This document shows, in pieces, positions 4,912 to 26,050 of a stretch of 64,000 nt of DNA (position 1 is the stretch's first letter; each line of letters opens with the position of its first letter). Below the pieces are notes generated by a model. It had not been told where the DNA came from. It was given only the letters and a program-made list of their open reading frames with translations, and searched no databases. The position numbers and the translations under genes were made by a program. This DNA comes from Octopus vulgaris (taxonomy: Eukaryota): the NCBI GenBank assembly GCA_951406725.2, contig OX597838.1, positions 28,830,001 to 28,894,000 of the forward strand. Reading direction: 5' to 3'.

Positions 4912-5108
4912 CAACAAGAATCTGGATTTGGCGGCAATTCTGTGTCTTACCGAGGAGGTGAGAACCGGATCTACGTTGGCAACCTTCCCCCTGATATTCG
5001 TGCCAGAGATATTGAAGATCTCTTCTACAAATTTGGCAGGATAACCTTTGTGGACCTGAAAACCAGGCGAGGACCACCATTTGCTTTTGTGGAATTTGAA
5101 GACCCTAG
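4912..5108 (+). CDS. SRSF1: SRSF1/SF2-family splicing factor, first visible coding exon (RRM1 N-terminal half)
   Basis: Acceptor tctttgtttAG at 4910-4911; reads [65 protein letters not shown](R) with RNP2 IYVGNL and RNP1 PPFAFVEF; donor AG|GTATGT at 5109 (phase 2). No ATG in the exon. Confidence 0.95.
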
Positions 5109-10850: not shown

Positions 10851-11011
10851 GGATGCAGAAGACGCTGTACGGGAAAGAAATGGCTACAACTACGACAACT
10901 ACAAGTTGAGAGTTGAATTTCCACGTGGAACTGGACCTGGTGGACGGGGCCGAGGTCGCGGAAAAGGTGGACCCCCTTCGCGTCGCTCCCAGTACAGAGT
11001 GTTTGTGTCAG
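10851..11011 (+). CDS. SRSF1: SRSF1-family exon 2 (end of RRM1, Gly/Arg linker)
   Basis: Acceptor catcttctAG; reads [53 protein letters not shown](G); donor G|GTAAGC at 11012; phase matches exon 1. Missed by the ORF track. Confidence 0.96.
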
Positions 11012-11317
11012 GTAAGCGGCCCTTTTGTTGATTAACCAATTTTCATAAAGTTGAGGCCTAAATTTGGATTACTTACAACTCCCTTCATTGTCCCTTTATT
11101 TGATGACAGGCTTACTTTTTAACCTCTGTCAAAATGTTTAAAAATGAAAAAAAAAAAAATTCCTAGGTTCCTATATGTGAAGTTGGACCTCCTATAAACT
11201 TTGATAATGATGAAAGGAAATGAATTGTAATTGAAATTTTAAAATAAGGAAAGATATTGTATAACCTGTTATTAAAAAAAAAACAAAAAAAAAACTAAAA
11301 ATAATTGTTTATTTAAG

Positions 11318-11490
11318 GTTTACCAAAATCTGGCAGCTGGCAAGACTTGAAGGATCATATGCGTGAAGCTGGTGATGTCTGCTATGCAGATGTCTTCAAT
11401 GATGGCTCTGGAATGGTGGAATTTCTGAGATATGAAGACATGCGGTATGCTGTGAAGTACCTGAATGAATCTAAATTCCGATCTCATGAG
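11318..11490 (+). CDS. SRSF1: SRSF1-family exon 3 (pseudo-RRM2)
   Basis: Acceptor tttaAG; reads (G)[57 protein letters not shown] with the diagnostic SWQDLKD motif; donor GAG|GTAAAA (phase 0). Confidence 0.96.
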
Positions 11491-12578
11491 GTAAAATATT
11501 TATTATTATTATTATTGTTGGTGTTGTTGTTAAGGTGGCAAGGTGGTAGAATCATTAGCATGCTGAACAAAGTGCTTAGCAGCATTTTATCTGTCCTGAG
11601 TTCAAATCCTACTGAGGTCAACTTTGCCTCTCATCCTTTTGGGGCTGATGAAATAAGTACCAGTTGAGCACTGGGGTTGATGTAATTGACTAGCCCCACC
11701 TCCCCTCAATTTCAGGCCTTGTGCTAATAGTATAAAGGGTTGTCGTTAAGGTGGTGAGCTGGCAGAACCATTAGCACCCTGGACAAAAAGCTTAGTGGTA
11801 TTGCATTCTGAGTTCAAATTCTGCTAAAGTTGATTTTGCCTTTTGTCTTTTGAGGGTTGTTAAAATGCATAACCTGTCAAGAACTTGGGGTCGATGTAAT
11901 TGATTAACCCCCTTTCCTTCGAAATTTCAGGCCTTGTGCCTATAGTAGAAAGAATTGTTATTATTAAGACAAGTGATTGGATAAAAAGGTAAAGACCTCC
12001 CTTTCAGTCAAGAATGAATCATGGGATTGCATCTAGAATGTTCCCCTGCAAGGCACAAGTCTGGGCAAGGTTGTTTTATGGAAGGCCAGCAGTTGGGCCA
12101 TGCATACCAGCCTCTCCTCTCCATGTCACTGATGTCATCCAAGGGAAAGGCAAAGGCTGACACAGCTCAGCATCAACAACATCGCAACTCATTTCTACAG
12201 ATCAGTGAACTGGAGCAATGTGAAATAAAGTGTCTTGCTCAAGAACACAACACAGAGCCTGGTCCGAGAATCGAACCCACTACCTCATGATTGTGAGCCC
12301 AATATTCTAACCTCTGAGCCATGCGCCTTCTTCTGGCTCAGTGATAGTGGAATTGGTAAAGTAATTAGTTACATTCTTCTGTGTGAATTCCCAATTTTGA
12401 TTCACCAATTCCACCAAGACTCTTCCTGCTTCCATGATACAAATTTCCTGTTTCAAAATGATTGAAATTAAAACCTTGCATTGAAATTCCAGGTTTAATG
12501 ATGTTCCAAACACCAGCTTGATAAACACAGTTAATTTAATAAATTCTTCTTTATTTTCAAAATTAATTGAAGCATATA

Positions 12579-13115
12579 GGCATGGCTCTGTGGTAAGAAG
12601 GCGGCGAGCTGGCAGAGTCGTTAGCACGCCAGGTGAAATGCATAGCTGTATTTCGTCTGCCGTTACGTTCTGAGTTCAAATTCCGCTGAGGTCGACTTTG
12701 CCTTTCATCCTTTTGGGGTCGATAAATTAAGTACCAGTTTTGCACTGGGGTCGATGTAATCGACTTAATCCCTTTGTCTGTCCTTGTTTGTCCCCTCTAT
12801 GTTTAGCCCCTTGTGGGCAATAAAGAAACAAGAAGCTTGCTTCCCAACCACACGGTTTGGGTTCAGTCCCACTGTGTGACACCTTGGGCAAGTGCCTTCT
12901 ACTTTATCCTTGGGCTGACCATAGCCTTGTGAGTGGATTTGGTAGGTGGAAACTGAAAGAAGCCTGTGGTGTATATAAATATGTATATCTTATGTGTGTT
13001 TGTCTTTTGTCTGTTTGTTCCCCATCAGCACCACTTGATAACTGGTGTTGGTTTGTTTACATCCCTGTAACTTAGTAGTTTGACAAAATGAGGCCGATGC
13101 AATAAGTACTGGGTT
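12579..13115 (+). mobile_element. SINE family A with a family B SINE nested in its head
   Basis: Family B copy at 12601-12829 flanked by TSD AAGAAG (12595-12600 and 12830-12835). Confidence 0.85.
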
Positions 13116-13411
13116 TAGCTACCTGTTTCTTTACCTGCCTATCGGTTTTGCTACCTGTGTGTTTCTGTATCTATGTATTAGTCTATCAATTAATCTATTT
13201 ACTTGTCTGTGTAACTCATGTAACTTATTTATATCTCTCTTTCTCTATTTTCTCTGTATATCTACCTACCTACCTACCTACCTCTCTATCTACATGTCTA
13301 CCTATCTGCTATCAACCTATTATACAGGCCCAAAAGTCATAAAGGTGTTAATTCATTTATGCTGCTTTAAATTTATAACTTAGCATGTCATACCGTATAT
13401 ATATATATATA

Positions 13412-13914
13412 TCAATCCTAAATCTGATTTTTCCCTGTAAGTTTGGATTTATTCCCTAATATTTTATTATTAATTAATATATTGATAAATTACGTATAAT
13501 ATAATATTTTACTATAAAATTGGATTCAATCCTAAATCTGATTTTTCCCTGTAAGTTTGGATTTATTCCCTAATATTTTATTATTAATTAATATATTGAT
13601 AAATTACGTATAATATAATATTTTACTATAAAATTGGATTCAATCCTAAATCTGATTTTTCCCTGTAAGTTTGGATTTATTCTAATATTTTATTATTAAT
13701 TAATATATTGATAAATTACGTATAATATAATATTTTACTATAAAATTGGATTCAATCCTAAATCTGATTTTTCCCTGTAAGTTTGGATTTATTCCCTAAT
13801 ATTTTATTATTAATTAATATATTGATAAATTACGTATAATATAATATTTTACTATAAAATATTCAATCCTAAATCTGATTTTTCCCTGTAAGTTTGGATT
13901 TATTCCTAATATTT

Positions 13915-13920
<6 letters not shown>
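13412..13920. repeat. Tandem array, 114-bp unit, about 4.5 copies
   Basis: Unit TCAATCCTAAATCTGATTTTTCCCTGTAAG... starts at 13412, 13526, 13640, 13752 and 13863; flanked by (TA)n. Confidence 0.95.
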
Positions 13921-13958
<38 letters not shown>

Positions 13959-14325
13959 TTAAAATGAGGGTGAGAAATTGGCTATTAAATTAATTAAATA
14001 ACCACAAGTGTAATTGGTAGAACTAGCTACAGGTCTGACCATGTGCAGACGTTCTCGTATATAGTTCTGCAAATTATATTCGTATAGACGGCCACACTGA
14101 AGATCTACGGGCAAATTGCGTAAGTAAAATGACGTAATCTGTTAATAGTGAAACATTTATGTGAATAATCTATATTTTGTTACTTTTCATTTGTCTTGCT
14201 CGCTTACCTTCTGGTGTTTGCTAAATTTTTCTTGAGAACATTTCTTAGTGGTAAGACCATAGCAGATCTGCTTCTAGCATAAGGGTTGTCCACATAGTGG
14301 TCATCTCTTTTATATGTGTGTGTAG

Positions 14326-14926
14326 AGATCGAGACCTTTGGAAGTATGCTGTGCGTGGGAAGACCCGGCAGGACAAGTGAGACCATAATCCGTGGCCTCT
14401 ACCTGGGACGTAGCCAGCCCACTTATGCATACCTTTCCTTCTTGTGACACAAACCCTACTTGTGAAGATGTGTTGAGGCAAGTGAAAATCAAAATCGAAA
14501 TCGAATGTTTCAACATCAATGGAAATTGTAGCTGAGATACCAGTGCCGGTGGCACGTAAGAGAACCATCTGAACGTGGCCGTTGCCAGCGCCGCCCCGAC
14601 TGGCCCACGTGCCGGTGGCACGTAAAAAGCACCATCCAATCATGGCCGTTGCCAGCCTCGCCTGGCCCCCATGCCAGTGGCACATAAAAAGCAACATCCG
14701 ATCGTGGCCGTTTGCCAGCCTCGTCTGGCACCTGTGCAGGTGGCATATAAAAAGCACCCACTACACTCATGGAGTGGTTGGCGTTAGGAAGGACATCCAG
14801 CTGTAGAAACACTGCCAGATCAGACTGGGCCTGGCGCAGCCTCCTGGCTTCCCAGACCCCAGTTGAACTGTCCAACCCATGCTAGCATGGAAAGCGGACG
14901 TTAAACAACAATGATGATGATGATGA
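14326..14926 (+). mobile_element. 5'-truncated RTE-clade LINE (ORF end, 3'UTR, (GAT)n tail)
   Basis: DRDLWKYAVRGKTRQDK-stop followed by a 3'UTR with GGCACGTAAAAAGCACC subrepeats and a (GAT)n tail. The same tail recurs at 1019, 1362, 1491, 3746, 6431, 30511, 32253, 38660, 41300 and 58487. Confidence 0.8.
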
Positions 14927-15073
14927 TATATGAAATATATGCACATTAAGAGTAATGTCAGATTTTGTGAATTAAACATAAAAATGTAATTAAAACAAAT
15001 TTATTAAACTTTTAAACTCCTCTGTGACATCTGGCCCAACCTCTATGTATGTATGAATGTGTGTATGAGTATA

Positions 15074-15439
15074 TCTCTATCTATGTAAACGGCAAAATGT
15101 CTGTGTGTGTGTGTCCTTTGTACAAATCCACAATTTTTCAGTTAGATGGCTCGCACTTTCTATGGTCATTCAAAACCGTCCAAGGGTGGTCGTGCACATC
15201 TTTACATTTCCCCAGTCACACTGCAAAGCCGTTAAAAAATCAATAGAAGTGACTTTTTTGTGAATTTTCTATCCAAAACCCAATCAAAATGCCCAAAACT
15301 TGATACGCCAATTGAATGCCAGCTAGCTGTATGTGATTGGTCAGAGGTTTGGACAGTACTCGCGTGTATGTGTGCATGCACGCAGCTGTATATGCATGCA
15401 CTAGCACTATGACCCAGCAACGCCGGGTCATAATGCTAG
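15074..15439 (+). mobile_element. Non-autonomous Helitron
   Basis: 5' TC(TCTATCTATGTAAAC), 3' hairpin TATGACCCAGCAACGCCGGGTCATA then CTAG, between A and T; lies in SRSF1 intron 3. Confidence 0.75.
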
Positions 15440-15587
15440 TATATATAAATTTCCCTACCTGCCAATTGGTCCCTCTCTCTCTCTCTCTCTCTACCTGTCT
15501 CTGTTTTTCTCTTATATATTTACTTCTACCGTATTTTATTTCTGTTTCACTCTCACTTGACAAAAAATATTTATTTATTTACCCCAG

Positions 15588-15764
15588 GGTGAACAAGCCT
15601 ACGTCCGTGTGAAGCAAGACTACCGGGGACCTTCCCGTTCCAGAAGCAGAAGCTATTCTCCACGACGCACTCGAGATTCGCCACGCTACACACCGATGAG
15701 GCTGCGCTCTCGCTCACCCTCATCTCTCTCCACATCTTACTCTCGTTCCAGATCACCTTTTTGA
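15588..15764 (+). CDS. SRSF1: SRSF1-family last coding exon (short RS domain, stop)
   Basis: Acceptor accccAG; reads GEQAYVRVKQDYRGPSRSRSRSYSPRRTRDSPRYTPMRLRSRSPSSLSTSYSRSRSPF then TGA at 15762-15764. The four exons join in frame (708 nt); intron positions after FEDPR, VSG and RSHE match vertebrate SRSF1/SRSF9. Confidence 0.94.
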   Translation, partial: GEQAYVRVKQDYRGPSRSRSRSYSPRRTRDSPRYTPMRLRSRSPSSLSTSYSRSRSPF

Positions 15765-16463
15765 ACTGAAACAAACCATTTTTTTTTCCTTTTATTAATC
15801 TGTCTGTGTGTATGGGTCAAGTATGGCTCCAATGGATACGACACTACATTTTTCTTTTCTCTTCTCTTCCATTTCTCATTGTTTAGTTGTCACATTTTTC
15901 ATCAAATCTGGTGTGTGGATGGATTAAGGACTGGGCATTGAAAGTAGGGATGGGGGTGGGGACCAATCTTTAGACTAAGATAATTGGAACTTAGCTTCAT
16001 AATCTTTGAATTCCTTTCTCCTTTGTTTTCAGCTTTTACCCCCCCCCCCCCACCTTATGTTACGATTTTTTCCCAGCCAATTTCTTTGTATTTTTTGATG
16101 CTTTCACATTACAATTTAGCATAGAATGAAATAATTTGTGATTATAACCACAACAATAACAAAAACAATAATAATAATCCAACCCCCTCTTAATTTTTTT
16201 GTTTTCAATTTTTTTTTCTTTGAGTTCTTTTTGTAGTAAAATAACAGAAAAAAATTATTTGGGTTTCACTTCTAAATAAAAGTTTGGTGAAACGCTTCAT
16301 TAGAATTTGATAATATATACGTATACTTATGAGTGTGTGTGTATATTTCTATACATACATACACACACATTTCTGCTTACTTCGTGGTATAAAAAAACAT
16401 AACTATATACATGTTGTGTGTTAGAGGTGTGTATAGCTTGTCATATACATAGAGTGAGTGTGT

Positions 16464-16523
<60 letters not shown>

Positions 16524-18034
16524 GAAGCTGTTGCAATGTACTTTTTGACTTGACCTTGCTTTGAATATCACATCTTTTCCTTTTCTTCTGCATCTGTTCT
16601 CGACTCCTCTCTCTCTCTCTCTCTCACCCTCCATCCTTCTTGTTTTACCATTTTCCTCTTCCAGCTGGGGGGTTTTGTTTCTCTATGCTTTAATGATTGT
16701 TTATTGTGCTCCTCTTTCCTAGATCCTGTGTGTTGGTACTCACAGTTACTGTGGAGCAGCAAAGGAATGTACCTACCTACCTACGTACCTAATCTACCTA
16801 TCTACCACACACACTCACAGAGCCGTCCAGATCATTGATTTACGGACACACACCACATTAACTGCTGTTTTCTCTCTCTCTCTCACTCTCTCTCACTCTC
16901 TCTTTCTCTCACTCTCTCTCTCTCTTTCTTTCTTTCTCTCTCTCTTTCATTCAGCGGAATATTGCTCCAAGATTTCCAATGCCACAAAAAATAAAAAGAA
17001 AGAAATTATATATATCTATAAAAAAAATGTGTAAACAAAACAAACTACAAAAAGTACAAAAACAAAACAATGAACTGGTATGCATCTGTGTAGTCCTTTC
17101 AAAATTTCTTTAAAAAAAATTTTTATCTTTTTCTGTTATTATTAATTTTTCTTCATTATTCTTTAGAATTTTTATTAATTAGGATTAAAAAAAAATATAC
17201 GTAACAAAAAAACATACGAACAATATAAAACATTAATCTATCTATGTGTACACACACACACACTGCATGTATACACTGCATATACATACGACCGACCGAT
17301 ATACACACTCACAAAAAAAAACACATATACATGTGTTTAAAAAAAAAAACTTAGAAAAAGAATAAAATTGCTATCTTGCAGTATTTTACATAACAAAAAA
17401 AAAGTTTCCTTAATCTTAAGTAACTTTAATTATTTTTAATTACGTTAATTAAAAGTTAATATTTTATATTTAAAAGGTTAAATGCGAAAGGACAGTTTTT
17501 ATCTCTTTGTGAGATTTTGTGGTGTTGACAAAAAAAAAAAAAAAATGAAGCAAAGAGCTTTGTCAAATCTATGAGGGGGAGAGAGAGCATCGTTTTCTTT
17601 CCGTTTACTGTTAGGTTCTGTTTCTGTCATCTCGTTCTTTTCCACTGAAGAACAAACAAAACAAAATGACCTTCTATTAGAATTATCCCATACAGTTATA
17701 TAACATTATACACACACACACACACACTCTCTCCTCTTTCTCTATGTATAAACACTTCTAGTCATTCGGTAGTTTCTTTTTTTCTGTCCAACCTCGTTTG
17801 TCAATGAATGCCCCCCACTTCTTCACACCCCTGTATACATAAACACTAAGAACACGAGACACACACCCAAAACGCAAATATAACCATATTTGGAAGAAAA
17901 GAAAATGTACTTTTTTTTTTTTTACCATATATGGTGTTGACTCACCACCCCCTAGTGTTCTTCTTGTGTATCTATTGGTCCTGAATGTAGTAATTATTTT
18001 CATTCTTTCTTCCTATACAGTAATATACAATGAT

Positions 18035-18079
<45 letters not shown>

Positions 18080-19811
18080 CTCTCTCTGTAGTGGTCATTT
18101 CTGTTGGTTAGCAAAAAGGAAATCCTACTGCATAACCTTGAGATTCCCTTCTCTTTCCTTTCAACTCTGGCAAGTCTGAAGTTGTTGTTGTTGTCATTGT
18201 TAGTAGTTGCAGACGCTTCATACTTAATAGACTGGCAAAGTAATGTCTTCTGAGTACCATCTTTGCCATTTTGAATGTGTCTTTCCATTCCTTTGTAATT
18301 CAAATTTATAAAGACAAAAAAAAAAAAACAATAATTATATTCTAGATTTCTTTGTTCCTAGTTCACCTGTCTGTCTATATATACATATACACACATATAC
18401 ACTCCTGTCTGTTGTTTTGCTTATACACACACATCACATGCATTTCTTTTAAGTGTGGGCCCATTTCTATGCAAATGCTGGGAGCCACCGAGCGTTATTT
18501 CTTTTCTCTCTTTGTTCTTTTCATTTCCCCAAATTTTATTTTCCATTCTTCTTCTTCAAAGTTGTAGTGGACCAGAAATAAGGTTTGTTATTTCAGTATC
18601 TCTGCTCTTCTGTTCCAAATATTTCACAGAAATATATTATAATTTTTACACATGATGATGATGATGACGATGATCACACACATGCACACACTTAAACACA
18701 CGCTACTATTTAGTTTTGTCCATTTTCCATGACTGTAAACACACGCACTCACACACATACATAGGAAAGAGGAAACCTTAAAGTTTAATCGCATTCATAT
18801 TTTCCATATAACAGTCCTGTTCCCTTAATGTTTTTTTAATGTTAAAGCAGTATTGATTTTGAGAGTGTTATATATACATATAGGTATACATATGTGTGTG
18901 TGTATATATAGATGTATAGATAGATGTATATAAATGACATGACTGGTATGTAATAACAGTTTATAAATTTATTTCTTTAAATGGCCACAGCTGAGATGCA
19001 TTTCACAACAACACACCAGGAGTGTCTCTCTTCTGCCACCTTTGGTAGATCTCTAGTTTCTGTGTGTGTGTGTGTGTGTGCTTGTATTTTATATTCTAGT
19101 TAGCAGCCTAGTTATATACATACAGTATAGTTATATTACACTCACTCAGTATCATTAAAGGTTTTGGTTTTTATTTTTAGCTTCAATTCAGTCCCAACAA
19201 AGATGTCATTCCATCCATGACTCTCTCTCTCTCTCTCTCCTTTTTGTACAGCTTGGACAATGTTGTCCTCTGTCGTCTTTTGCTTCGTATAATGTGGTAG
19301 GTAGAGGTGCAATTTGACTCCTATTTCTAGAGGGCTGCATAACTACATAGAGGCTCCCATTTATGCCTGTTGTTTCATACAGTTTTGGCTACGTCTATAT
19401 AAACTGCTCTCTCATAAATATATACATAATACCATATCTGGAAAATTCACCGCAAGCATTTTTTGCCATGGGAAATTTCGCTGTAGGAAATTTTCCCATA
19501 ATTAGAGAAAATTACCTTTCTCTAATTGGTAGGTTAGTTGATGAAGTTGCCATTTTAATAAAACAGCTAATCTTTATTTTTGCTATTAATTTTTTTTTTA
19601 CGGCAAAAATGCTTATAGTGAAATTTCCTATAACCACATAATACATACATTTTACACACATGTAAACACCCACATTATTTTCACTGACCTTCATGTCTAC
19701 CTGGAAAATAGAATCAATGTAACCCTGGGCTAAATTGTTGCTTTCTATTTAGTTTATGTATTTCTGTAGTTCAAGCCCTGTTGAAATTAATTCTCTCTTT
19801 CTTCCTTCGGC

Positions 19812-19850
<39 letters not shown>

Positions 19851-22800
19851 TGAAACAGCTGTAGGGGATGTTGGTGGCATGTCTTTTGATCAGCTCTAGT
19901 CCCAAATCTCCCCCTCATGGCATTATGGATTTATGTATATCAGAAAAAAATAATTACCAGCTTCGTCTATTTTCAACTCTAAGAGTTAATACTTTTTAAA
20001 AAAAAAATATTTTCTTCCTCCTCCTCCTATGCTCTCTCTCTCTCTCATAAATTAAGCCCCATCCCTTCTATTATTATTATTATTATTATTGCATACACTG
20101 CCTCTTTCCATGTTGTTTAGTCTTGATGTTGCTTTTTTATTTTCTTATTTTTACTGCATAATTTGAAAAACCAAAATTGTCTTGTAGTTTTATTCCATGA
20201 ATGATATAAAGATATGTAATCTTTGTTGATTTCATAACATTTGTATTTAAAAAGTAATATTAATAATGATATAATAATAATAATTAATAATAATAATAAT
20301 GATATTATTATTATTATTTAGTCAGTTCTGATGGTGTCGGCGAGGTGTTTCTAATGGTATTCTTCCTTTTTTTTTTTCATGTACTTCTAAAGGTTAAATA
20401 CTTAAAGGATGGATTGGAAGCTAGGAGCATTCATTGTCTGGAGACAGGATCCTAGGAACCTGGGTGGAGGGTGAGGAAAAAAAAATATTAAAAAAAACAG
20501 AGCAAAGGAAATTTAGTCATGTTTGTTGTTTTCTCTCCGGAAAAGAACAAAAAACAAAAATACACAAATGCAGGAAAGGATTTATTAAGGATGACTTAAT
20601 TTTTTATATTTTTAGCCATTTAAATAATGCAAAAAAAAAAAAAAAATTATTTTTTTTTTTTTTGCATTGAGAAATTGGCAAATTTCAAAATCAGAACAAC
20701 AACAAAAAAAGTCAAATCAAGCTAAGCAAAAAAAATATCAGGAGAAAGGAAGGAGAAAGAATGTAAAGCCAAATGGCTATATATACATATATATATATGT
20801 GTATATATATTATATATATTTATATATATATATTATATTTTTTAAACTATGTCTTAATCACTTGTACCACCAGATTCAGGATAACAAAGGATATACCATT
20901 TTTTTTTATTGGAAAGCAAAATGAGGCAAATATCGAATTAATTTTAAAAAGGAGGAAAAAAAATATATATATATAAAAAAAAAAAAAAAGCAAATATAAA
21001 CGAGGCAAAAATCGGATTAAATTCACTTCTGGTAAAATACTTCCTACAGGAATTCTTCATCTGCTTTTCTTGGATTTCTTTTAACAGAATAATGGATTTA
21101 ACCTGTAATTGGAATTTTTCATAATTTAACGGATTGCTTTCAATGAAAAAAAAGGTGGCATCGAAGGAAGGAAAGAGAAACAAAAACCTATAAATATAAA
21201 TATTAACGATATAAATAATTATAATCTTTAACGGAACTCCTGCAAGTAATTCCTATGGAAAATAAAATTTCAAAGGAGAATGTTTTAAGGGGAGAGTTTG
21301 AGAAAAACAAATTGTTCTGTAATAGGGTTTATTGAAAAGACTAGTTTTTAGAGTTAGTGGGGCAAGTTTAAAAAGTGTCAGGGGTTTACTCTAACAGTGA
21401 AATCTTTGGTCTAGCTGCTGCCTTTTCCAGCTTATAGAATGAATCTCTCTTGTAGAATTATTTGGTGCTTAGGTAGTATTTTTGCATGCTTGTGATAGTT
21501 AATCTTAGTTGTGATTATGGTATGTCAGTGTGCGTGTTTGTATAGTCTGGTTCAATATAATGAAAGTTATTTGATAGCTTTTGTTGTAAAATACAAAGAT
21601 GATTTGAGTGTTGCTGGTAGCTGTTACTCCTTCTGTTTGGGAGTTTCTTCATTTAGTAATTAGTGTTACTGTTAAAGTATTTAGCCACTGAGTCCGTTAG
21701 GTAAGTTCAAAAGCTGCTCTTGTTGGGGGCAGGGGGCAGAGAATCGGTTTTTTCTTTTATCTGTTAAGAGCTGCTAAATTAGTCTTAGATAATTTGAATC
21801 AGTTGATTTTCTCATAGAGTTGGTAATGTCAAAGTGTTAAGATTTTAATTGGGGAAATAATGAGTAGAGCTGTTCAAGTGTTTAAGATTTTAAAAGACAA
21901 AAATCTGAAATGATATCTTGATTAAACAGTAATGCATGTGTTAAGGGTTAGATTTTTTCCCTTCCTGAAAGTTTTCTAGTTGGCTCAGAGGGTGGTCTAT
22001 CAGCAGAGAAGTCTTTGTATCTTTGTTGTCATACTTGTTCCTCAGTTTTATCAGTCAATTAAGAATTAATTAGGCACACTTGTATGTTGGGAGAAAGACC
22101 GGTCGTTTATTATTGTTCAAATTCTCTTGTGTATTATTGGTATTATTTTTTTAGCTCACCTCTTCCATCTGTATCTCTATGCAGTTTTTACTGATTGATC
22201 CAGTCTACCTGATTTTCAGGTGAGTGTGATCTGTATAGATGGAGGTGCATCATTATAGCTAGCAAGATAGGGTGCGACATCAAAGTGTATTATCCTTTTG
22301 GAAAGGGATACAAAATCAAAACCCCAAAAAAAGTCTTCCCATGATGGGATTTAATCCATACATTTTGCTTAGATGTAATTGGAAAGTTATTCACTGGTTT
22401 AAGAATGAAGACAGATAATTTGTTACGAAAGTAACTATAGATTTGACTACTGCTGCCTTTAGAAATTTTTCTGTTGGGTTACTGTAGATTGTGGCTTTTA
22501 ATTTTGTTTAGTTTTAACAGAAAATAATGAGGAATTGAGCTCCACAGACCAGATTTGTAAAGTTTAAGGCTTGGCTTTGTTTTCATGGTTTATCTCTTGT
22601 TTTTAGGTGTTTTTATGCTGTGTCGTAGAGCAAGACTCGCTATTGTTGAAACTGCATCGGTCTGATATAAAGGACAGAATAGCTAAACAAACAATGGTCA
22701 GTGGAAATAATTTGGTGTATGAAAGGGGTGGACGTTGAACTCGATTTAAAAGAGTAATAGTGAACTAAGGGTCAATGAAATTTCAATTTACTGATTCAGT

Positions 22801-24100
22801 GCAGAACACCATTTTGAAGAATTAACTTTTCTCCCCGTCCCTAAGGTCATCTTATTTCTTCATTTTACTTGGAATCTGTAACAGGAAAGGAATTCTTAAA
22901 CTATATTTCTCGGTTCTATTTGGATTCTATAACAGGAAAGGAATTCTTAAACTATCATGAAAGTGGATCCTAGGCATTGAATAAAATCCCTTTGGACGAT
23001 TCTGACGAGGATTTTTATTTCTTTTTACAAGGATAAAAATATCTGCTAACCTTGATGGTGTCTTGGTCGGCTGGCACCATTGAGGCCCATCTGTCCTGTC
23101 TGTCTCTGTCTCCAATAACACCAGGAAAATTAGAGGCACCATTTGGAAGGATTCTCTTTCAACCGCTAAGGAACATAACATCTTGTCTGTCTCCCCATTT
23201 TTTCTGTTTTTTTTATTAAATATATATATTTATATATATATATATATGTATTATAAAATTAATTTTCCCTCTTGGTCAGGAAAAGGAAAGGAAGGAAGGA
23301 AAAATTGGAATTTCATTCGGATCGCAAGCTAAGCAAACATACAAAATAAAAGTAACAACAACAACAGCAACAACAATAAAAAAAAAAAAAAAAACAGACA
23401 AGCAAAGCGAGACAGGAGACAACAACAACAGCAACAAAAAACAAACATAACAAAAAAAAAGACAAAATTAAACATTACAGCAATTATTTAAAGGCCCCCC
23501 TCAGTATAAGGAACATTTTTTTCAAGGGAGATTCTAAGCTTGTTCACAGACAACAGGGAGGATAGGCTATCACAAGGCACTGGCTTCTTCGTCGATAACA
23601 CTAGGATACCTGCTGGATTTAAAACCGGTAAATTATAACTAGTATACTTTTTTTTCCTCTCCATTACTATTATTACTACTACTACAACTATTACTACTAC
23701 TACTACTACTACTTTATATTTTTAAAATTTAATATTACGGTTGAATGTTTTAAATTTTGACATCTACTCATCTTTATATATATATATATATGCTACTTTA
23801 ATTTTGATAATTTCATATTTTTTCTTTTTATCCTTTTTTTTTTTGTGTTAATTAAAATTAAGTCGTTAGAGCAGAAAAGTAATGTCTCTTAATTATTTTT
23901 TATTTTTAGTTTTTTGCAAATTTTTTTTCTTTTTTGTCCCCTTACTGATTTTTTTTTTTTTTTTTTGAAAATTCATCTAGTGTTAATAAATTAAAAATAT
24001 TGATTGCTTTTTTTTTGTTAACCCCATTCCAACCACCATCCTATAAATGTGATTCTTTTCTATATAATTCCTTTTTCTAGCAGATTTAATGTGAAAATAT
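15765..24100 (+). other. Putative long, possibly spliced 3'UTR of the SRSF1-like gene
   Basis: About 8.4 kb without intact SINE/LINE copies; AATAAA at 16275-16280 followed by a GT-rich tract, and at 23985-23990 followed by a T-rich tract; GGA-rich blocks and candidate splice sites. Confidence 0.55.
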
Positions 24101-25559
24101 AAATTCATATATGTAATAACTCAGTGTTTTGCTTTTCAGGTTTTCGCTGTCGTCTCTTTTCTTTCTATCCTTCTCTTGTTTTAATTATGCTTTGCATTTA
24201 TCAATTAATGTTTGATTAATATTACATGTTATTAAAAGGTGGTGAGCTGGCAGAGTCGTTAGCATGTTGGGCAAAATGCTTATCAGCTTTTTCATCTGTC
24301 TTTACGTTCTGAGTTCAAATTCCACCGAGGTCGACTTTGCCTTTCGTCCTTTCGGGGTCAGTAAAATAAGTACCAGTTGCATACTGGGGGTTGATGTAAT
24401 CGACTTAGCCCCCCTCCCCATGAAATTTCTGGCCTCGTATCAAAATTCGAAACCAATATCATATGTTGTTAAGTTTTCCTTCAAGAGCAGCAGGGGGGGG
24501 GGTACTCCCAGAATTGTTAGAGCTTTAGAGACGAAACAAAAATACCTTGTGGTATTTCTTCTGGCATGCTTGCTTAACATTCTGAGTTCAAACCCTGCCT
24601 GGGGTCAAATTTGCCTTTCCGCCCTTCCGGTTCCGGTTGGGGGTGGGTGGTGGTGGTGGGGAGGATCGGTAAAATAAAGTACCAGTCGAAGTACGGGAGG
24701 TTGATGGTATCAGCTGACCTTTCCCTTTTCTCAAACCTGCTGGCCTTGTGCCTAAATTGGAAATAAACAAATTTTTTATTTGTCGTAATATGTTTTGTCA
24801 ATTGTCGCTGCTGTCTTAAGGGTTACATGTTCCCAGTATTCCAGCATTTGTCCCTGTTTCAGTCCCCCCTCCCCCTCCACCCCATTCCCATCCAAACTAA
24901 CTGACATAATAAAACTCCATTTTATAACAAAAACACTTTGATCTTTCTTTAGTTTTATTTTTTTCTGGTTTTTTTTTTTCTGCATGAGATTTTTTTTTAA
25001 AATCCCCCTTTTTTTTTTATCTCTGTCTTTTCTTGGTAATTTTCTTTGTGAAACTAGCCAAATTAATTATCCAATTAACGAAGGTGTACTTAGGTGCAGG
25101 CTTGGTTGTGTGGTTAAGAAGGTGGGCTTCCCAGCTACGTGATCTTGGTTTCAGTCCCACTGAGGCACCTGAGGCCAGTGTCTTCTCCCATAACCCCAGA
25201 CCGGCCAATGTCTTGTGAATGAATTTGGTAGATGGAAACTGTGTGGAAACCTGTTGTGTGTATGCGTGTCTTTGGGTTTGTTCCCCCCACCCAATTCGAT
25301 GCTGGTTTGTTTACATCCCTGTAACTTAGTGGTTTAGCAGAAGAAACTGATAGAATGAGTACTGGAGTCTGTCTATTTGACTAAACCTTTCTGAGCAGTG
25401 CCCCAGCATGGCCACAGTCCATTGACTAGAACAAGTTCCCATCTACTACATTCTCCATTGGCTGTCCGTGGGCTACAGTGCAAGACCTTTGTCCAAGGTG
25501 CCGCACAGTGGGACTGAACCCGAAACCACGTGGCCGCAAAGCTAACCCCTCAATTCCAC

Positions 25560-26050
25560 AACCATACTTGTATCTGTCTGTCTGTCTGCCTGACTACATG
25601 TCTCTCTGCCTGTCCGTCTGTCTATCTGTCTATCTTTTAGTTGTTTCAGATTTTTGACTGCCGTCATGGTGGGGCACGCTAGAGAGTTAATCATATTGTA
25701 CCAGAAATTATTTTAATAAAAATGTTTAGTGTATGTGGATAAAATTAATATATAATACAAAAATAACTTCCATCTCTCTCTATTTCTCTATCTCTATAAC
25801 TCATCTGTGTATCTGTCTGTCTGTCTGTCTATCTATTGCTCTGTCTGTCTATCGCTCTGTCTGTCTGTCTATCTATTTATCTGTCCATCCATCTATCTGT
25901 CTGTCTGTCTGTCGCTCTGTCTGTCTGTCTGTCTGTCGCTCTGTCTGTCTGTCTGTCTATCTATCTATCGCTCTGTCTATATATCACTATCTAACTCTCT
26001 CTCTCACTCTCTCTCTATCACTCTGTCTGTCTGTCTGTCAATCAATCAAT
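25560..26050. repeat. (CTGT)n/(CTAT)n microsatellites
   Basis: Direct inspection. Confidence 0.9.

Follow-up and report, generated by a model that had tools for sequence, protein, structure and literature searches.

GGA-rich blocks behind candidate splice acceptors in the 3′ tail of octopus SRSF1: probably the octopus form of an old feedback switch

Introduction

The dosage of SRSF1 is tightly held, and a feedback on it has been described in mammals, where it is linked to ultraconserved sequence. GGA is bound by the SRSF1 pseudo-RRM through its SWQDLKD helix, with an affinity that rises as more GGA motifs are present (PMC7813835). The productive human isoform retains an intron in its 3′UTR and overexpression of SRSF1 promotes splicing of this UTR (PMC9262138). 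The spliced form is a substrate of NMD, and its junctions lie within ultraconserved elements (PMC2953442). The 3′UTR poison exon and terminal intron of SRSF2 (SC35) resemble the arrangement proposed here in that a non-coding exon lies past the stop and its inclusion makes the normal stop a trigger of NMD. They differ in gene and motif and have been described in mammals and chicken, and the available text reports no poison isoform in the fly data that it cites (PMC7726792). For SRSF5, Lareau and Brenner (2015, PMC4379411) described unproductive splicing that is likewise an event in an SR gene and has been kept across animal phyla, but there the intron concerned interrupts the coding region, in the SRSF4/5/6 family, and the octopus SRSF4/5/6 intron is not rich in GGA. 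The available portion of that paper names SRSF1 once, for human autoregulation only.

We found no report of feedback exons in the 3′UTR of an invertebrate SRSF1, in a search that extended to few subscription journals and to no supplements, so that lists of NMD targets in flies and worms could already include tail isoforms of SF2 or rsp-3. The available portions of PMC4274639, PMC4617965, PMC7726792, PMC3173450, PMC4937301, PMC11346455, PMC12179342 and PMC3794575 contain nothing on SRSF1 tail exons in invertebrates. The vertebrate loop is known, and what is likely to be new here is a set of candidate SRSF1 3′UTR feedback exons in invertebrates.

The DNA considered is a stretch of 64,000 nucleotides from Octopus vulgaris (the window). 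Coordinates are those of the window, and the exons, blocks and candidate signals described lie on the + strand. Compared with the autoregulation of human SRSF1 (SF2/ASF) through its 3′UTR, the octopus locus has the orthologous gene, candidate splice sites behind the stop where the human gene has real ones, and, over the 166 nt covered by contigs, an unspliced tail as the form that is seen. In the human tail, an isoform-1-specific primer covers four GGA in 23 nt (PMC9262138). The human junctions, however, lie in ultraconserved elements about 1 kb apart, whereas the octopus has two GGA blocks of 0.8-0.9 kb, 4.6 and 7.1 kb behind the stop, with low-complexity interruptions.

The octopus SRSF1 gene

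Four exons of the window were translated and compared with P0121, a 238-residue protein named SRSF1B-like and recorded from Octopus vulgaris and O. bimaculoides. The letter-for-letter identity between this protein and the four exons identifies the gene as the SRSF1 ortholog, with the SWQDLKD pseudo-RRM intact. They are coding exon 2 with the first half of RRM1 (4912..5108), exon 3 with the end of RRM1 and the glycine linker (10851..11011), exon 4 with the pseudo-RRM and SWQDLKD (11318..11490) and the last coding exon with the RS domain (15588..15764), which ends in a TGA stop at 15762-15764. The pseudo-RRM exon has a single match in the genome (one of two candidates was scored), and a search elsewhere for SWQDLKD with two patterns returned three matches, none of which resembles an SR gene. 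No other gene was found 3′ of SRSF1 within the window, on inspection of the open reading frames by eye. With the exons and the stop mapped, the start of the first GGA block is placed 4.6 kb behind the stop.

Two minor features of the gene may be recorded here. A candidate exon 1 is located some 7 kb upstream of the window (L120:3051); it consists of three codons (Met-Asn-Tyr) and is followed by a consensus donor. An AT-rich tandem array with units of roughly 120 nt, seen by eye, occupies window positions 13400-13950 within the last coding intron.

Two GGA-rich blocks and their borders

A sequence-only reading of the window had pointed to a branch point and acceptor behind SRSF1, followed by a block in which GGA greatly outnumbers TCC. 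The motifs are as it described them: a branch-point-like CTAAT (20351-20355), a pyrimidine run (~20360-20378) and AAG (20390-20392) followed by G at 20393 make up acceptor 1 (20351..20392), and the AG is the first after the branch-point-like motif. A further AAG (20405-20407) could serve as an alternative acceptor, with an exon start at 20408. The counts also stand, with 34 GGA and 5 TCC in 20393-21300 (about 37 GGA per kb) and 3 GGA in the 850 nt that follow (21301-22150). Block 1 itself, a candidate non-coding exon or series of exons, extends over 20393..21293, and its first 100 nt are the densest, with 9 GGA. The enrichment is specific to the triplet. Of 47 GG dinucleotides 34 are followed by A, GAA occurs at expectation, GAG is not clearly enriched and AGA is depleted; when GGA is masked, the excess of G vanishes (77 G, 96 C). 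Shuffled versions of the block average 10.1 GGA under mononucleotide shuffling and 18.6 (sd 2.8) under dinucleotide shuffling, and 34 or more were reached in 0 of 2000 of either kind.

A twin block, absent from the sequence-only reading, lies further downstream. Acceptor 2 (22822..22845) consists of a branch-point-like TTAAC, a pyrimidine run and AAG, and is followed by block 2 (22846..23627), with 28 GGA and 6 TCC, a count matched by 0 of 2000 shuffles. This block contains a 51-nt tandem duplication (22853-22954). A candidate donor, CCG|GTAAAT (23628..23633), begins 13 nt past its final GGA and is similar to the GTAAAT donors that end clusters in three of the animal loci described below (L007, L011, L017). 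The next 673 nt contain no GGA. A candidate downstream acceptor, TTTTCAG|G (24115..24140), is a possible partner of this donor.

Candidate donors are also associated with block 1. AGG|GTGAGG (20471..20476) would end a 78-nt exon (20393-20470), and its score ranked third in 15590-24500 with splice-site matrices that are approximate and generic rather than trained on octopus. A weak candidate, CAA|GTAATT (21246..21251), lies 13 nt past a GGA near the end of the block. As a separate observation, the start of block 1 (20393-20407) resembles the start of the intron behind exon 4 (11491-11502), both reading Val-Lys-Tyr-Leu in frame; this is probably chance.

In 15790-24400, 19 strong sites with a pyrimidine tract and AG were found. 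Four of these have a branch-point-like motif, and in two of the four, namely at 20393 and 22846, the AG is followed by G; the 150 nt behind these two contain 11 and 7 GGA, respectively.

Comparison with the genome background

In both blocks GGA is 3.4 times as frequent as their composition predicts. Its density per kb between the stop and 24300 is 6.1 in the intron-like stretch, 36.7 in block 1, 7.7 in the spacer, 35.8 in block 2 and 0 downstream, and the two blocks are the top two non-overlapping windows among 107 across the 64 kb. For a wider comparison we used 40 stretches of 10 kb from the octopus genome (38 arbitrary and 2 adjoining the window), which gave 7342 overlapping 900-nt windows on both strands; these represent genomic DNA rather than true A-rich UTRs. 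Whether the skew would exceed the genome-wide background was a question left by the sequence-only reading. After normalisation for composition it does so in this sample, in which block 1, with a z of 7.4, stands against a background maximum of 7.26 from a (GGAT)n microsatellite. Among background windows with GC of at most 32% (n=1418), the GGA count is at most 20. A raw excess of GGA over TCC as large as that of block 1 is present in several background stretches, which are at least partly microsatellites. An automatic cluster test applied to the octopus UTR alone was not significant, because low-complexity inserts break the blocks into 9 clusters.

A DNA search showed both blocks to be single-copy in the genome, so that an origin from a transposon was rejected. 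No Rfam family was detected within 11000-26000 and no informative hairpin in 20300-24300, where a repeat search returned low-complexity pairs and the one 51-nt duplication only. As a control from the same genome, the 60 kb around the octopus SRSF4/5/6 gene contain no GGA block (maximum z 2.98). In this ortholog (L131; G000:C6:629454-634600), a 2.7-kb intron that is not GGA-rich parts SWQ from DLKD, a position that we take to be the site of the conserved SRSF5 unproductive intron.

SRSF1 tails in other animals

Aligned SRSF1 proteins from animals (34 in number) served as the query in a scan of metagenome contigs, which yielded 80 loci, mostly transcript-like. Three have no stop, 31 are plant-like, 9 are of other types and 37 are animal-type; removal from the last group of 2 duplicates, 1 locus with an odd C-terminus and 6 with tails below 300 nt left 28. 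For four genomic or intron-containing loci the stop was set by hand. In the 28 animal-type tails, with at least 300 nt past the stop, there are 591 GGA versus 351 TCC, with 301 expected. A significant 120-nt GGA peak occurs in 16 of the 28, compared with 3 of 20 plant-like SR contigs. Among the 16 tails of at least 700 nt, 14 contain a distal GGA cluster and 11 contain two or more. Clusters are absent from several animal-type loci (L004, L020, L021, L031, L057).

The borders of these clusters resemble those in octopus. The mean acceptor score ahead of 46 GGA clusters is 1.55, against -1.26 for random placements (equalled in 0 of 2000) and -1.28 for GGA-free windows (0 of 5000). The donor score behind 47 clusters was equalled in 1 of 2000 random placements, and neither signal appears at TCC clusters or at plant clusters. 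A G|GTR lies 9-14 nt past the final GGA at 14 of 49 clusters, from 9 loci, versus a background of 2.5%, with the distance window picked after the data were seen; block 2 of octopus fits, at 13 nt. Taken locus by locus, the polarity of the acceptor signal (before rather than after the cluster) is modest (12/16, p 0.018; p 0.16 under another definition of clusters) and that of the donor signal is not significant (p 0.09-0.25). The contigs are mutually related and several are crustacean-like, so that they are not independent. A preference for the weak AAG at cluster acceptors was considered and dropped, since 8 of 17 versus 33% is not significant (p 0.16).

A quick tree, which allows rough grouping only and leaves out L032 and L073, places L003 with aphid, L011 with beetle and L018 with crab, and eight related loci fall beside the crab clade. 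Three loci (L005, L012, L015) group with gastropods, whereas L023 and L029 have no clear position. In the pair L012 and L015, the acceptor together with the first part of the GGA array is 82% identical over 101 nt, compared with 77.7% for the coding DNA, and this is the sole conserved island of the two tails, save internal repeats of the same block. The octopus tail region, which is about 8 kb long versus 1-1.6 kb for most contigs, has no stretch that can be aligned with the 80 non-cephalopod loci.

The odd C-terminal tails of some arthropod SRSF1 records (P0051, P0046 and others) were considered as spliced-in distal GGA exons. This was rejected: the tail of P0051 gave a match of 7 residues (E 0.005) in the proximal UTR of L065, and such tails are therefore no evidence of a distal exon.

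Several loci deserve separate mention. In L018 (799-1117) and L027 (832-1030; not clearly animal), GGA-rich sequence directly follows the stop, and these contigs may be already-spliced isoforms. No spliced and unspliced pair was identified among the metagenome contigs. An intronless SRSF1-like gene on a 56-kb contig (L020:10001-11110) has no GGA cluster behind it and is a possible natural negative control. Some plant-like SR30/34 contigs (L039, L041 and L081) have a short GGA-rich stretch too, in the first 200 nt of the tail and immediately after the stop or a premature stop; the acceptor signal of the animal type is missing there. Two divergent genomic contigs, possibly from early-branching animals, contain GGA arrays after an AG downstream of the SRSF1 stop (L073:13933-14400 and L032:1890-2150).

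Octopus transcripts

In 20 sequencing runs from 7 studies, 68-88% of the sampled words of 15580-23800 are present. None of these runs is recorded as RNA; 14 were guessed to be RNA, and these carry 74-88% of the words. Their assemblies mostly contain 46-199 million letters, compared with 2.8 billion for the genome, so that RNA is likely. The sequence-only reading had suggested that spliced reads should be sought at 20393. In three of four runs (X1, X7 and X14, probably RNA), contigs cover acceptor 1 and cross it unspliced over 20321-20486; the fourth (X20) has no contig there. Over these 166 nt the contigs of the three runs pass through 20393 and 20471 with neither a joint nor a loose end, save a variant in a run of T, and contigs of this kind drop rare forms. 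In X7 the depth is 12 upstream of acceptor 1 and about 97 downstream. This step would fit use of the exon, and it was given no weight because contig depth cannot rank parts. The unspliced contigs would agree with the human case, in which the productive mRNA keeps its UTR intron, and would agree equally with a site that is not used.

Interpretation of the GGA-rich blocks

The feature is real and non-random, and it is larger than had been supposed. In the sequence-only reading it was an SRSF1-sensing UTR exon. The identity of the gene, the non-random block, its twin and the layout in other animals all favour that idea; the junction at 20393 was not seen in the contigs over 20321-20486. The same reading took it to be one exon and a mollusc counterpart of the vertebrate loop, which appears too narrow on both counts: octopus has two or more GGA units, each followed by candidate donors, and units made of an acceptor, a GGA cluster and a donor recur in other SRSF1 tails, probably across animals. 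We consider it probable that the two blocks are regulated non-coding exons of the 3′UTR through which SRSF1 senses and limits its own level, as a counterpart of the vertebrate loop. Its parts may be graded separately. That the candidate acceptor is spliced at some level is what we would expect with most confidence. That a negative feedback dependent on SRSF1 operates here seems a reasonable expectation, somewhat less secure, whereas the case for NMD as the sink of the spliced RNAs is evenly balanced.

The proposed mechanism may be described as follows. When SRSF1 is low, the UTR would remain unspliced, or would be cleaved early, at a proximal poly(A) site, and the mRNA would be translated. When SRSF1 is high, the protein would load onto the GGA arrays and activate both acceptors (20393 and 22846) as well as the donors that follow, and the arrays would be defined as exons. 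One of the donors close to the stop codon (15821 or 15911-15956) would be joined to 20393, to 22846 or to both, and the resulting junctions would lie over 50 nt beyond the stop. The spliced RNAs would then be lost, most likely through NMD and possibly through nuclear retention. The sequence offers motifs for such junctions, all of them over 50 nt from the stop: candidate donors from 15821 on and at 20471 and 23628, and candidate acceptors at 20393 and 22846.

Since the layout of acceptor and GGA recurs in other invertebrate SRSF1 tails, the octopus feature is probably the local form of an old feedback switch, one that is likely to be animal-wide. We can argue with about equal force for and against a more specific proposal, that the sensor is an ancestral feature of animals, shared by molluscs, insects and crustaceans, perhaps also by earlier-branching animals, whose grammar has been kept without alignable sequence. 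This grammar would consist of an acceptor, a GGA array and a donor about 12 nt past the final GGA, usually occurring twice.

Other explanations must be weighed against regulated exons. The blocks may be landing pads for SRSF1 in a long 3′UTR that is not spliced, acting in translation, export or nuclear retention, with splice-like motifs that are rarely or never used. The only transcripts seen, the unspliced contigs over 20321-20486, are what this explanation predicts, and human SRSF1 autoregulation has a translational layer as well (PMC4379411, citing Sun 2010). It leaves unexplained, however, why clusters begin right after acceptors and end at a fixed distance from donors in many animals, and why the acceptor is conserved between L012 and L015; we therefore regard it as unlikely. 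A weaker case can be made that the blocks arose by compositional chance, as A-rich, microsatellite-laden non-coding DNA beside ordinary pyrimidine tracts. Raw GGA skews of similar size do occur in the background sample, the region offers 19 strong pyrimidine-tract AG sites, and the contigs over 20321-20486 show no junction. But the GGAs are dispersed rather than in tandem, neither block was matched in 2000 shuffles, all 1418 low-GC windows contain at most 20 GGA, and the layout recurs in orthologs, so that chance is hardly a credible source of this pattern.

It is also conceivable that the exons are real and answer to another signal, either a different GGA-binding protein, such as the SRSF4/5/6 ortholog with its own pseudo-RRM, or a splicing event that shortens the 8-kb UTR and stabilises the mRNA rather than destroying it. 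NMD in flies and worms relies more on the length of the UTR than on junctions, and the octopus tail region is far longer than most of the contigs examined. Moreover, SR proteins cross-regulate one another (PMC4379411). Against this, GGA is the structurally defined target of a motif encoded by SRSF1 itself, no GGA block accompanies the SRSF4/5/6 gene, and a stable spliced product should dominate the contigs, which spliced forms do not over 20321-20486; a signal of this kind is quite unlikely. Finally, 20393 could begin an alternative last coding exon joined to 11490, which would replace the RS domain with a tail of 20 residues (stop at 20453-20455) and produce an SRSF1 without RS. The matching phase is indeed open for 20 codons. 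Such a C-terminus is nevertheless absent from the 9 members of the cephalopod protein cluster, block 2 is open for only 10 codons in the matching phase, and the GGA array extends 800 nt past the stop, all of which makes an RS-less isoform very improbable.

If the GGA exons are real, regulated exons as we favour, the loop is far older than vertebrates and has survived by motif grammar alone, which would qualify the view that most unproductive events in SR genes are separate and late in origin. If they are ancestral as well, they would constitute a second unproductive-splicing event in SR genes with an age like that of SRSF5, and one invisible to conservation tracks based on alignment. They would also raise the question of what molluscan NMD responds to, exon junctions or the length of the UTR. 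Exact points at which the proposal can be tested are the junctions at 20393, 22846 and 23628 and, in crustaceans and insects, versions of the units that are 70-250 nt long.

Other candidate signals in the octopus tail

Near the stop, the generic donor matrix identifies a candidate proximal UTR donor, CAA|GTATGG (15821..15826), 56 nt past the stop, with alternatives at 15911, 15944 and 15956. A small cluster of 6 GGA (15887..15988) follows a pyrimidine tract and TAG and is a possible extra UTR unit; no branch-point-like motif was found ahead of it. A motif scan identified AATAAA and ATTAAA followed by a T-rich stretch (23985..23995), a candidate distal polyadenylation signal, and seven further AATAAA lie between the stop and 23985, the proximal ones at 16275-17361. 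The best two donors of the region, the near-consensus TAG|GTAAGT at 21701 and CAG|GTGAGT at 22220, sit in the GGA-poor spacer. The second of these is 35 nt past a CAG acceptor at 22185 and could end a micro-exon or be a recursive site.
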